Source of the DNA: Escherichia phage nomo
Strand: one strand, 5' to 3'
Length of the DNA: 64,000 bases
Sequence record: MN850578.1
Under the pieces are notes generated by a model. The model was not told the DNA's origin. It saw nothing but the letters and a program-made list of their open reading frames with translations, and made no database searches. Position numbers and translations under genes: made by a program. Positions 39,184 to 42,280 of the stretch are shown here, piece after piece; the first letter of the stretch is position 1; each line of letters starts with the position of its first letter.

Positions 39184-39296
39184 AGATACTCCGCATCACA
39201 TTTAGGGCAATGCCAAATAAAATCGTCTAGTGCCTTGCACCAACGAAGATTACAACTACAGCCGCACTTGCAAATTTTATAAATACCTGATGACAT
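39180..39296 (-). CDS. zinc-ribbon micro-protein (38 aa) between nrdD and nrdG
   Basis: Strong RBS aggagg; translation MSSGIYKICKCGCSCNLRWCKALDDFIWHCPKCDAEYL; stop overlaps nrdG start (ATGA). Confidence 0.4.
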   Translation of the reverse strand: MSSGIYKICKCGCSCNLRWCKALDDFIWHCPKCDAEYL

Positions 39297-39359
39297 ACTG
39301 CACCTCCTAGCTCACTGTGTGTCAATAATATGCCACATCCTTGTGGCTTTTGTCAAGAA

Positions 39360-40568
39360 TCAGCAACCACAACTTCCGTAGTGCTTAACTCGCTCGATAA
39401 CTTCCGCTTGCTTACCTTTATTGTAAGGACGGGAGTTAGGACTGGAAAGGTATCCAGACACACGTCGAATTACACTGATCGTTCCCTCTTCATGGTTTCC
39501 ACACTCTGGGCATACAAAGCCTTTAGCTGTTGCACTGAACTCACCAGAGAAACCACACTTGAGACATTTATCCACAGGTTGGTTAATACCAAAATACATA
39601 ATGTGTTTATACCCGAAGTCAACAAGAGCCTCTAAAGCATCCAGGTTGTTTTTCAGGTTAGGTGTTTCTACGTATCCGATGTTGCCACCAGAGGAGATCA
39701 TAGCAAAACCTTCCTCATACTCCCACTTATCAAAAGGAGAGCTATTTATCCATACTGGCTGATGGAAACTGTTGGTGAGATATTCATGCTCGTGCTTCAA
39801 CACTTCAGGATATTCACGATCCAGACAGGTTGCAGCTTTATAGCATAGACTCTCAGAAGGAGTGCCGTACAAGCTAAATGCTAGTCTACTTTCCTTCTTG
39901 TACCGCTCACAAGCATCTCTCATGTGCTGAAGGATTCCAAGAGCTAAAGCCTTGTCACCTTCTCTGCCCAAAATCTGACAGGTTTCATACACACCAATAT
40001 ACCCAATGCTGATGGAAGCGTACCCATCATAGAAGAGTTTATCAATACTTTCTTCAGGATCCAGGCGAGCAAGAGCGCCTTCACACCACATGATGGGGTT
40101 CTGCCCTGCCTTTGTTCCTTTTAGACGGTTAACCCTTACAAGGTGAGCCTCGTATGCAAGATCCAAGTATTCGTCAAGAACTGCAAAGAAATCAACACCT
40201 TCCGTCTTAGCTTTTGCCGCAATCATTGGCAGGTTAAGGCTAACAACGCCTAAGTTAAATCTGCCAAGGTATTTCTCCTCGCCTGTTTCCAAGTCATTGT
40301 ATTTGCTAAGAAAACTCCGGCAACCCATGCTCGTTACTTTGCCATCTGTCGAGCCTGTCACTTTCCTATTTAGTGGTACAGATACGAAGTCAGGATAGAT
40401 ACGTTCTGCACAGCATTCCAGAGCTAATCGTTTCAAATCATAGTTAGGATCTCCAGGGTTCATGTTGACACCCTCTTCTAGGAAGAACAGCACTTTAGGG
40501 AACACAGGTGTGATCCGTTCTTCACCAAGACCCATTTTGTGGACTTTCAAGTAATTTTTGGTAATCAT
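39360..40568 (-). CDS. nrdD: anaerobic ribonucleoside-triphosphate reductase, C-terminal part (glycyl-radical domain); true 5' boundary may lie upstream of the first ATG
   Basis: C-terminal RRVSGYL glycyl-radical motif and CxxC...C cluster; frame stays open upstream of annotated ATG. Confidence 0.7.
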   Translation of the reverse strand: MITKNYLKVHKMGLGEERITPVFPKVLFFLEEGVNMNPGDPNYDLKRLALECCAERIYPDFVSVPLNRKVTGSTDGKVTSMGCRSFLSKYNDLETGEEKYLGRFNLGVVSLNLPMIAAKAKTEGVDFFAVLDEYLDLAYEAHLVRVNRLKGTKAGQNPIMWCEGALARLDPEESIDKLFYDGYASISIGYIGVYETCQILGREGDKALALGILQHMRDACERYKKESRLAFSLYGTPSESLCYKAATCLDREYPEVLKHEHEYLTNSFHQPVWINSSPFDKWEYEEGFAMISSGGNIGYVETPNLKNNLDALEALVDFGYKHIMYFGINQPVDKCLKCGFSGEFSATAKGFVCPECGNHEEGTISVIRRVSGYLSSPNSRPYNKGKQAEVIERVKHYGSCGC

Positions 40569-41416
40569 TCTACCAAAGACCGAGGTATCCAGTCCTAAAC
40601 TTAATGTGATGAATGGAGTCTGCTGTCTCCTCCCTGTGTTTCCACAGGGCCAGACTATCTCTTACTCTACTTCAATAAGATAATAACCCTTTATTGTGAG
40701 ATGCTTACCTTCGGCATTTCCTTCAATAGCCCTATGAACGTTACCTACGTTCAAATTTAAGGCTTTTGCACAGGCATAGAGTGAAGGATATTCACCCACC
40801 AAGGTTTTCCCTTTGTATGCCTGCACTTTCCTATAGCACTTACCTGGACAAAGTCCTGTTCGGAAAGCATGTCTCTTATTATCTTCCGGCAAAACCCACT
40901 CTAGGTTAGACGGATGATCATTCAATGTATTGCCATCTTTATGATTCACTTCCCAGTTTTCAGGGTCTTCTGGGACATCCGGCAAACAATACAAGGCAAC
41001 AATCCTTGAGGTTTGGATTCGAATCTTTTTACCTTTGTGGTTGAAAGAGTACATATAACGGCGTTTAACATGCTTGTTACCTTTTCCATAACCTCCCCAC
41101 AATATTGGGTGTAGCATTCCACGTTTTCCGTATACGTTTCCAACCTCATCAATCACATAGTTTGATTCTTCACCATTAAGAATGATCTTTTTCATAGAGC
41201 CTCTCCATTTCGAAGTTAGTATTTCAACTAACCCCTACACTACTTGGTTCAGAAATGTTTGTCAAGCATTTCTGCCTTTCGTTAGTCGTTACAACCGTTC
41301 CAACTCCTGTAAGAACTAGTCACGGGATTGGCATAGCTTTCGCCTTAGCGTTCCCCGTTAGCCGGATTTACCGACCCCTCTTATGAGGTTAGGAGAGTTT
41401 TACAACGGCCAGTTTG
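40569..41416 (-). mobile_element. ~850-bp insertion splitting nrdD, carrying an HNH homing endonuclease gene; candidate group I intron
   Basis: Separates the N- and C-terminal nrdD reading frames; contains free-standing HNH ORF; flanking segments non-coding. Confidence 0.5.
40662..41195 (-). CDS. HNH homing endonuclease
   Basis: Translation contains EVNHKDGNTLNDHPSNLEWV (HNH motif); located inside nrdD. Confidence 0.65.
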   Translation of the reverse strand: MKKIILNGEESNYVIDEVGNVYGKRGMLHPILWGGYGKGNKHVKRRYMYSFNHKGKKIRIQTSRIVALYCLPDVPEDPENWEVNHKDGNTLNDHPSNLEWVLPEDNKRHAFRTGLCPGKCYRKVQAYKGKTLVGEYPSLYACAKALNLNVGNVHRAIEGNAEGKHLTIKGYYLIEVE

Positions 41417-42280
41417 TTAACCGTTGACAGAAGTTAATGTATTGATTTGATAGAGCAAAGTCTGCATGCTGTCAAATACGTCTTTATCTGTCATTTGCAT
41501 TGCAACAGTTTCAGCATCCGGCAACCAATGTTCCTGGCAAAATTTAAGGTTCTTCTCATAGGTTGCTTCAGCATACTGTGCCAGATAATGATCAATATGG
41601 CTCATAGTCTGACCACCATATTGAGCACTAGCTACCGCACTAGAGATTTGGCTAAGGATTGTTGTTGCAACCCCTATTGACTTCGGCTTACTGACATGGG
41701 CGTTACCAATGTTGAATCCGTTTTCCAACATATCTGGATAATTTACCAAACAACAGTTTGTTAACGGACTGATCAAGTAGTCAAGATCATGCACATGGAT
41801 GAATCCTTTATTGTGCTCTTCGGAGACACGGTCTGGCAGGATCTGTGTTGATGCAAGGTGTTTGCTAAGAATACCTGCAAGCAGGTCGCGATGAGTGTGT
41901 ACATGATTAGTAGGCTTATTTGCGTTTTCTTTTGTAAATTCATCACAAGTTCGATCCAAGAAGCCACTAATATCTGCAAGCAGTTTTCCACCTGCCTCTC
42001 TGTTATTATCTCTTGTCTGTCTATACTGGATGTATTCTCTGGCTGCACATTTTAAACCCATATCCATAAGAGCATCTTCAACAAGGATATGGATATTTTT
42101 TACAGAGATCGTGCACTGGTCGGTTGGTAGATTGTTAGCAACAACTTCATTAACCGCGCAGGCGATCCGGTAAGCTTCTTCTTCAGTATGTCCAGACTCA
42201 AGTAAGGCGGACTCTGCCGCCTTGATCACCTTAATTCCGTTATAGAACTCTTCTCTACCGTCCCGTTTTACAACTTTCAC
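41417..42280 (-). CDS. nrdD: anaerobic ribonucleoside-triphosphate reductase, N-terminal part (ATP-cone)
   Basis: Starts MKVVKRDGREEFYNGIKVIKA (ATP-cone-like); frame terminates at the insertion. Confidence 0.7.
   Translation of the reverse strand: MKVVKRDGREEFYNGIKVIKAAESALLESGHTEEEAYRIACAVNEVVANNLPTDQCTISVKNIHILVEDALMDMGLKCAAREYIQYRQTRDNNREAGGKLLADISGFLDRTCDEFTKENANKPTNHVHTHRDLLAGILSKHLASTQILPDRVSEEHNKGFIHVHDLDYLISPLTNCCLVNYPDMLENGFNIGNAHVSKPKSIGVATTILSQISSAVASAQYGGQTMSHIDHYLAQYAEATYEKNLKFCQEHWLPDAETVAMQMTDKDVFDSMQTLLYQINTLTSVNG

Follow-up and report, generated by a model that had tools for sequence, protein, structure and literature searches.

The question raised by the nrdD locus is how NrdD can be made from a gene that is interrupted. 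The window, a 64,000-nt stretch of DNA from an rV5-like (Vequintavirus) E. coli phage, carries nrdD on the minus strand, split between an N-terminal ORF (41417-42280, 287 aa), which covers the ATP-cone and NRDD profile positions 1-154, and a C-terminal ORF (39360-40568, 402 aa). An HNH ORF of 177 aa (40662-41195, also on the minus strand) lies inside the interruption. All three ORFs were confirmed at the positions given by an earlier sequence-only reading. That reading had described nrdD as split with an HNH gene inside, and the NRDD, Gly_radical and HNH_3 profile matches agree with it; read from position 40622, the C-terminal half covers NRDD profile positions 156-562 and the Gly_radical domain. 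The same reading left two explanations standing, a self-splicing group I intron or a free-standing homing endonuclease gene that has divided nrdD into two polypeptides.

Comparison with uninterrupted alleles located the insertion exactly. The insertion had been put at about 850 bp, which holds for the distance between the two nrdD ORFs (848 nt), whereas the true insertion measured against empty-site alleles is 797 nt (41419..40623). Exactly these 797 nt are absent from the alleles of close relatives, rV5 and naam among them. The empty site in rV5 and naam reads GTCAACGGG followed directly by CAAACTCC, and in the window GTCAACGGT and CAGACTCC are separated by the 797 nt. Exon 1 (41420..42280, minus strand) opens with GTG, preceded 6 nt upstream by GGAGAG, codes for the ATP-cone plus the N-terminal region of NrdD, and has AAC GGU as its last codons. 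Exon 2 (39360..40622, minus strand) starts CAG ACU CCA (QTP...) and holds the glycyl-radical domain. Aligned to uninterrupted homologues, as the earlier reading had proposed, the two halves are contiguous: the N-terminal half ends at G190 of T4 NrdD and the C-terminal half resumes at Q191. Excision of the 797 nt restores an uninterrupted NrdD; both exons are undamaged, and the spliced ORF of 707 aa is gap-free and 99.3% identical to rV5 gp108. The insertion (40623..41419, minus strand) opens with UAA, which closes the exon 1 reading frame, and its last base is G40623, directly before CAG ACU, the terminal guanosine ahead of the 3′ exon that is typical of group I introns. The splice sites could be shifted by 1 nt with the same protein (between GG and GCAG), and the boundary was chosen by the U at -1 together with the terminal G, the sole register that satisfies both the 797-nt empty site and group I rules. 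An intein was considered and rejected, as the insertion starts with an in-frame stop codon.

The non-coding flanks of the insertion fold into P1 plus P3-P9; a U.G pair marks the 5′ splice site, and the last intron base is a G (all elements on the minus strand). In P1 (41403..41426), seven contiguous pairs join the exon sequence CAACGGU (41426-41420) to GCCGUUG (41409-41403), the internal guide sequence, and include the U41420.G41409 wobble at the 5′ splice site. The P1 loop, UAACAAACUG, includes CUG, able to pair with the CAG of exon 2 as P10; at just 3 bp, this P10 is a point against the intron explanation. P1 of an ORF-less allele found in related phages (see below) is compensatory (AAACGGU/GCCGUUU). 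Both P1 strands co-change in that allele and in IMG/VR relatives, and P1 tracks each intron’s own exon. The 5′ strand of P3, CUCUCC (41392..41397, intron nt 23-28), pairs 6/6 with GGAGAG (41201..41206), which doubles as the Shine-Dalgarno sequence of the HNH ORF. P3 is likewise fully paired (6/6) at the equivalent place in ten related introns, which among them have seven different sequence combinations, and matching the strands with the partners of other introns lowered the score from 6/6 to 3.5/6 (10 introns). The core continues with J3/4, P4, P5/P5a and P6/P6a (41293..41360; J3/4 UAA, P4 CGGGG/UCCCG, a GAAA tetraloop on P5/P5a) and with the P7 5′ strand GACUA (41283..41287), which is invariant within the intron family and forms a pseudoknot with UAGUC (40657-40653). 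The segment 41212..41276 holds P7.1, an 8-bp hairpin (CAGAAAUG/CAUUUCUG), a GUAGGG motif, P7.2 (GGGGUUAG/CUAACUUC) and then CGAAAU. The 5′ strand of P8, GCUCUAU (41194..41200), overlaps the HNH AUG at 41195-41193, and the 3′ strand of P8, GUAGAGU (40664..40670), ends in the U with which the HNH UAA stop begins. The 3′ end (40632..40661) comprises J8/7 (AAGAGAU), the UAGUC strand of P7 and P9 (CCCUGUG-GAAA-CACAGGG, 40649-40632). The fold thus contains the conserved P3-P8 core with the P3/P7 pseudoknot, a J8/7-P7′ consensus (AAGAUAUAGUC-like) and P9.

Two hairpins, CCUC-AUAA-GAGG (nt 32-43) and GUCGG-UAAAU-CCGGC (nt 45-59), stand between P3 and J3/4 (41361..41388, minus strand). Both were found in 10/10 relatives analysed, with co-varying sequences. 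That this P2-less layout, with two co-varying hairpins between the P3 5′ strand and J3/4, characterizes a widespread phage group I intron family is a tentative proposal, which we would sooner doubt than accept. Literature searches gave no relevant description of hairpins between P3 and P4; if the layout is undescribed, these introns would form a structural subclass of their own among the IA2-like ones, which would partly explain the low scores of the Rfam model. The layout looks as though a peripheral domain had moved across the P3 strand.

Pairing within the family was examined in a cleaner five-sequence alignment (A2) and by anchor-based checks. No pair counts were taken from a MAFFT alignment of ten ORF-excised introns (A1), because it mis-registered the variable helices (the P3 5′ strand, and P7.1 to P8). 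Overall, 90.7% of cells were paired vs. 33-49% in slid registers, the former value being inflated since the consensus structure was derived from the sequences on which it was counted. Compensatory changes on both sides were seen in 29/57 pairs vs. 3-10 when slid, and none of 500 shuffles reached the observed value. The covariance-model search suggested by the sequence-only reading gave a divided result. At Rfam gathering thresholds nothing matched in the window; in a permissive scan RF00028 reached 27.7 bits in the window and 29.8 in the ORF-less allele vs. a gathering score of 50, an operational rather than a biochemical criterion. The RF00028 alignment ran partly into the HNH ORF, and the hairpins that follow P3 have no counterpart in the model. 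Phage introns with nuclease loops are reported to be under-detected by Rfam and GISSD models (PMC11878797). A family-specific model, R1, trained only on unrelated viral introns and on no Vequintavirus sequence, did match both flanks, with 82.4 bits (E = 8e-23) at 41427-41145, the 5′ flank, and 22.9 bits (E = 3e-5) at 40725-40614, and nothing else was significant over the 64-kb window. R1 also matched the ORF-less allele end to end (98.3 bits, E = 1.5e-27) and the T4 nrdD intron (41.5 bits, E = 1e-10). It found no match in intron-less rV5 or in the SPbeta bnrdF/yosQ intron, and in a staphylococcal Mre11 intron it matched the 3′ core only; these comparisons were aimed at linking the P3/hairpin layout to an intron studied by experiment, and neither provided such a link.

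The element is polymorphic in sister phages: 27 records have the intron with the HNH gene (HNH+), 14 carry an ORF-less form and about 73 are empty. The ORF-less intron (e.g., HeinrichReichert, MZ501073) is 257 nt long and occupies the same insertion site. From P1 through P7 the two forms are about 86% identical, and they have J8/7, P7′ and P9 in common; P7.1, P7.2, the P3 3′ strand and P8 are of other sequence, and therefore the two are not related by simple deletion of the ORF. The ORF-less allele shows a co-conversion-like tract of dense synonymous differences in the exon flanks (-57 to +15). In HNH+ alleles the differences are at positions 0 and +3. No record outside the 27 intron-bearing Vequintavirus ones has an HNH copy at 95% identity or above. 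With roughly 117 nearly identical phages in empty, ORF-less or HNH+ state, nature provides a ready set for crosses on homing and co-conversion.

These data bear directly on the free-standing alternative, in which an HNH gene inserted into nrdD and two separately translated polypeptides reassemble. Such ‘genes in pieces’ have a precedent among phage ribonucleotide reductase (RNR) genes in nrdA and mobE of Aeromonas phage Aeh1 (PMC2988022), and the closing stop codon of the N-terminal half, the HNH ORF’s own Shine-Dalgarno sequence (GGAGAG) and the two nrdD CDSs annotated in most GenBank records all fit this arrangement. Aeh1 and the window share an HNH endonuclease gene within a phage RNR gene, but Aeh1 has no ribozyme and its halves are translated separately, whereas the window has ribozyme flanks with covariation and a C-terminal half that lacks start signals. 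Between the HNH stop (40664-40662) and ATG 40568 there is no in-frame ATG, GTG or TTG. Exon 2 begins at 40622, and the ATG 40568 that opens the mechanically called ORF comes 54 nt later; translation from this first AUG, which has no Shine-Dalgarno sequence before it, would drop 18 conserved residues. In a split gene each half should carry its own translation start and stop signals, and the C-terminal half has no start signals of its own. In addition, a free-standing endonuclease gene cannot account for the ORF-less intron at the same site. We therefore rejected this alternative as having almost no chance of being correct.

We put at roughly 93% the probability that the nrdD insertion is a mobile group I intron of phage IA2-like type, whose core resembles that of T4 nrdD/sunY and whose P8 loop holds an I-HmuI-type HNH gene. 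The self-splicing alternative of the sequence-only reading is strongly supported by the exact empty site, the P1/P3-P9 fold and the R1 scores. If nrdD contains such an intron, NrdD should be one protein made after RNA splicing, not two pieces. It can still be asked whether splicing was lost or is too poor to matter, leaving nrdD effectively a pseudogene that is tolerated since aerobic nrdAB suffice. All the evidence for splicing is comparative, P10 is weak, and relative V18 has a frameshift precisely at the intron site, indicating that the gene can be lost. Phages grown aerobically in the laboratory can probably do without nrdD, so an intron that no longer works could survive for a while. Yet every core helix is intact, as are the P7/J8/7 consensus, the U.G pair and the terminal G; the exons remain undamaged with a protein nearly identical to that of rV5, and 27 independent isolates retain the intron at 96.9-99.9% identity together with an intact HNH ORF (at least 95% at the protein level). 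We consider such a loss of effective splicing very improbable.

For the active group I intron, the features above suggest the following course. The pre-mRNA would be transcribed through the intron, and ribosomes would halt at its opening UAA. Once the ribozyme has folded, a guanosine bound in P7 would attack after U41420, and the freed 3′-OH would attack after G40623. Ligation of the exons as GGU to CAG (GUCAACGGU to CAGACUCC) would give one mRNA for a 707-aa NrdD with the predicted sequence ...INTLTSVNGQTPFITLSLGLDTSVFGR across the junction. The HNH protein would be translated from intron RNA. With the P3 3′ strand serving as the Shine-Dalgarno sequence of the HNH ORF and P8 containing its AUG, folding of the core and translation of HNH should be mutually exclusive. 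Scans of the intron gave no sigma-70-like promoter and just two terminator candidates, one the P7.1 hairpin read as its reverse complement, the other a weak stem within the ORF. The HNH enzyme may then nick or cut intron-less nrdD alleles of co-infecting relatives, with repair copying the intron plus neighbouring exon bases.

At the comparative level, the production of NrdD appears settled as one spliced mRNA and one 707-aa protein. Most GenBank records of these phages wrongly show two nrdD genes and a ‘hypothetical protein’. The kind of intron is already known, since BASEL-collection records annotate the nrdD CDS as joined, with lengths that fit the 797- and 257-nt introns. In the rV5 genome paper, introns are mentioned for terL alone and not for nrdD, and neither rV5 nor FV3 appears in a phage RNR survey (PMC3653736). 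The element is of a textbook type and changes no concept.

The HNH gene product was compared with I-HmuI, encoded in the SPO1 DNA polymerase intron. I-HmuI is reported to nick one strand. The HNH ORF scored 29.3 bits against Pfam HNH_3 (cut-off 24.8) over residues 78-107, where the catalytic motif lies, and PDB 1u3e (I-HmuI) aligned to it almost over the full length (residues 8-160 vs. 8-159). Both proteins are intron-encoded and similar in length (174 aa for I-HmuI vs. 177 aa). The I-HmuI architecture, in which a NUMOD-like DNA-binding tail comes after an N-terminal HNH domain, is tentative for the 177-aa protein, whose PF22083 match of 18.4 bits lies below the cut-off of 27. The two resemble each other only weakly in sequence (E = 2.7e-4) and come from different host genes and phages. 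The 177-aa product, with its gene in the P8 loop, is a predicted I-HmuI-like HNH homing endonuclease.

The analogy with the nrdD introns of T4-type phages, drawn in the earlier reading, stands in part. The T4 nrdD (sunY) intron interrupts the same conserved stretch of the same gene, opens with UAA, has a related core and shares the 5′ layout of P1, UAAAA and then P3 with no P2; it lacks the two hairpins between P3 and J3/4. The analogy is only partial because the T4 intron interrupts codon Y180, 31 nt upstream of the site after G190 used in the window, and encodes I-TevII, a GIY-YIG endonuclease located near the 3′ end of a 1033-nt intron, whereas that of the window is an HNH enzyme in P8. Given this different site and endonuclease family, an orthologue of the T4 nrdD intron was rejected. 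The window adds another nrdD insertion site, acquired independently and 31 nt from the classical one of T4, in keeping with recurrent targeting of the same conserved RNR stretches by homing elements.

The minus strand of the window carries three successive open reading frames. The first (287 aa, GTG start, 42280-41417) contains the Pfam ATP-cone and positions 1-154 of the NRDD profile, the second (177 aa, 41195-40662) matches Pfam HNH_3, and the third (402 aa, 40568-39360), when read from 40622, covers NRDD positions 156-562 and the Pfam Gly_radical domain. Comparison with the solved structure of T4 NrdD showed that the N-half stops at G190 and the C-half picks up at Q191; the two halves are thus exactly contiguous parts of one NrdD. 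The ORF coordinates, the domain content and this contiguity bear out the sequence-only reading of an nrdD gene interrupted by an insertion with an HNH ORF inside. Joining 42280-41420 to 40622-39360 gave a 707-aa protein, 99.3% identical and gap-free against the uninterrupted 707-aa NrdD of phage rV5. The BASEL collection records place the nrdD start at codon 72, the ATG at 42067. The rV5 start corresponds to the GTG at 42280, which has GGAGAG 6 nt ahead of it and overlaps the glutaredoxin stop. As the first 71 codons (window 42067-42280) account for the greater part of the ATP-cone (Pfam residues 1-91; PDB 9d3x aligned from residue 1), the longer NrdD is more likely than the form starting at 42067.

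The nrdD region is 94-99.8% identical to that of Vequintavirus (rV5-like) E. coli phages, and among about 117-120 Vequintavirus records we observed three allele classes at the site. The whole insertion is present in 27 records, a much shorter insertion without the ORF occupies the same place in 14 (257 nt in phage HeinrichReichert), and the remainder, including rV5, have an empty site (284 nt vs. 1081 nt in the window, a difference of exactly 797 nt). At base level, the empty site in rV5 and naam reads GTCAACGGG/CAAACTCC and the window GTCAACGGT/797 nt/CAGACTCC. A 1-base slide of the boundary (GG/GCAG) leaves the protein unchanged; we chose the register in which U precedes the 5′ splice site and the intron ends in G, both of which group I chemistry demands. 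The GGU/UAA start is common to all relatives. BASEL records annotate nrdD as a joined CDS, with and without the HNH gene, and their lengths (2708 - 797 = 2168 - 257 = 1911 nt) agree with the boundaries set here; comparative genomics was used to set intron boundaries in the BASEL paper (Methods). Most records outside BASEL show nrdD as two genes. Across nrdD, about 18 GenBank MG0656xx entries that bear the name 'Campylobacter phage' and give C. jejuni as host share 95-99% identity with rV5-like E. coli phages; they are probably mislabelled or stem from contaminating coliphages.

The sequence-only reading had left open whether a free-standing endonuclease gene splits nrdD into two polypeptides, as in the Aeh1 mobE precedent (PMC2988022). 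This would call for a C-half with start signals of its own, yet no ATG, GTG or TTG occurs in the exon-2 frame from the HNH stop (40664-40662) to the ATG at 40568, which lies 18 codons within conserved sequence (QTPFITLSLGLDTSVFGR) and is not preceded by a Shine-Dalgarno. Moreover, no free-standing endonuclease gene can account for the ORF-less 257-nt insertion at this site, which would simply kill nrdD unless spliced out. On these two grounds the Aeh1 precedent does not apply and the split-gene explanation fails. The HNH ORF and nrdD exon 2 share a reading frame, with the HNH stop (40662-40664) as the only stop between them; this is probably coincidental (a one-in-three chance).

At the RNA level, the elements of a group I ribozyme are present in the 224 nt that precede the HNH ORF and the 39 nt that follow it. 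These are P1 (exon CAACGGU/GCCGUUG, whose splice-site pair is U.G), P3 (CUCUCC/GGAGAG), J3/4 (UAA) and P4 (CGGGG/UCCCG), P5/P5a with a GAAA tetraloop followed by P6/P6a, P7 (GACUA/UAGUC), P7.1 and P7.2 on either side of a GUAGGG motif, P8 (GCUCUAU/GUAGAGU), J8/7 (AAGAGAU), P9 (CCCUGUG-GAAA-CACAGGG) and the terminal G as last intron base. Scanning IMG/VR, we found the P4...P4′ core motif at 39 loci, many of which have the same wider layout. In ten introns P3 formed 6/6 pairs at the homologous position through seven different sequence pairs, vs. a mean of 3.5/6 with other introns' partners; P1 matched each intron's own exon, and local segments all folded to the same helices despite different sequences. 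In a five-sequence alignment including no Vequintavirus sequence, 90.7% of cells were paired vs. 33-49% in slid registers, and 29/57 pairs had compensatory changes vs. 3-10 when slid, with the structure taken from these same sequences; none of 500 shuffles came up to these values.

R1, the covariance model built from this alignment, matched the window at 41427-41145 (82.4 bits, E 8e-23) and 40725-40614 (22.9 bits, E 3e-5), the ORF-less allele end to end (98.3 bits, E 1.5e-27) and the T4 nrdD intron (41.5 bits, E 1e-10), all E-values being rough. The T4 intron is known to self-splice. R1 gave no match on intron-less rV5 and no other significant match across the rest of the 64-kb window. While the covariance search on the flanks of the ORF succeeded with R1, Rfam RF00028, the sole family match in the whole window, stayed at 27.7 bits, below its gathering score of 50, in an alignment running partly into the HNH ORF; it reached 29.8 bits on the ORF-less allele. 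Rfam and GISSD models are reported to be similarly weak on Bastillevirinae phage introns with nuclease loops (PMC11878797, 2025). The precise 797-nt insertion, the ribozyme helices, the R1 scores and the restored NrdD uphold the group I intron option, with splicing predicted from sequence.

The entire HNH ORF forms the loop of P8: its AUG overlaps the P8 5′ strand, its UAA stop overlaps the P8 3′ strand and J8/7, and the P3 3′ strand supplies the GGAGAGG found 5 nt ahead of the AUG. Folding of the ribozyme core and translation of the HNH protein would therefore be expected to be mutually exclusive. RBS occlusion is known for other phage homing endonuclease genes (PMC2988022). Residues 8-160 of the 177-aa protein align with I-HmuI (PDB 1u3e, 174 aa; E = 2.7e-4). 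Copies at least 95% identical are confined to the 27 intron-bearing phages; after these come I-HmuI-type HNH genes from many phages, at no more than 38% identity.

Compared with rV5, the ORF-less allele has 15 differences from -57 to +15 of the site, with the protein unchanged there, and its -100 to 0 bin holds 12 differences vs. 1-2 in adjacent upstream bins. Two changes are consistent in the two HNH-bearing alleles examined: GGG to GGU at position 0, from which the U.G pair gets its U, and CAA to CAG at +3, which brings in the third P10 pair (CAG with CUG). These exon-flank differences are circumstantial and may reflect homing, as they form the pattern expected from co-conversion. Phage V18 (L007, NC_041937) has no intron, yet carries the diverged exon tract (-57 to +15) of the ORF-less-intron alleles; 2 nt (CA) are missing exactly at the insertion site (equivalent to window 40622/41420), causing an nrdD frameshift, no CDS is annotated there, and its alignment to rV5 spans 680 nt with 7 gaps. 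Imprecise loss of the intron, a scar left by repair or an error in sequencing could each explain the missing CA. The IMG/VR contigs L017 and L023 share one intron and exon context and form a clean pair of ORF gain or loss, the P6 region being 22 nt in L017 and 888 nt with an ORF in L023; the two versions differ in P7.2 by a compensatory change (GGCCAC/GUGGUU vs. GGUCAC/GUGACU). JEP1 (L003, MT740314; 2279-3048) has a second insertion of ~770 nt with another HNH gene, ~300 nt into exon 2 (window about 40313-40323), with group I scores of 32.9 bits (Rfam) and 33.5 bits (R1); it is also found in phita32 and 'Campylobacter phage C2' and is absent from the window. In WalterGehring (L001, 3595-3848), nrdD and nrdG are separated by an extra free-standing gene for a 'putative homing endonuclease'; the same interval in the window (39184-39359) is only a 176-nt spacer. 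In Vequintavirus, homing elements appear to have a hot spot in the nrd cluster.

Sequence comparison leads us to regard the element, with a probability of roughly 0.93, as a mobile group I intron whose P8 contains an I-HmuI-like HNH gene, NrdD being made as a single protein after the predicted splicing. It is a further case of a well-known kind with boundaries already in GenBank; the present analysis adds evidence at the RNA level and shows where the ORF is placed. The rV5 genome paper (PMC3606486) reported introns only in terL. In the window intron and its IMG/VR relatives the P3 5′ strand directly follows P1, and two co-varying hairpins (window 41361-41388; also loci L009, L012, L014, L017, L020 and L037), replacing P2 between P1 and P3, precede the invariant J3/4 UAA. 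Most of the 39 IMG/VR introns are arranged in this way. We found no description of this layout in the literature, within limited coverage, and no characterised introns sharing it; the T4 nrdD intron lacks the two hairpins between P3 and J3/4. In T4, the nrdD (sunY) intron interrupts codon Y180, 31 nt upstream of the window site, and the endonuclease encoded close to its 3′ end is I-TevII, a GIY-YIG enzyme, whereas the window intron has its HNH gene in P8. The two introns have related cores and are alike at the 5′ end, with P1, UAAAA and P3 in that order and without P2; the different sites and enzymes indicate independent insertions into one conserved stretch.
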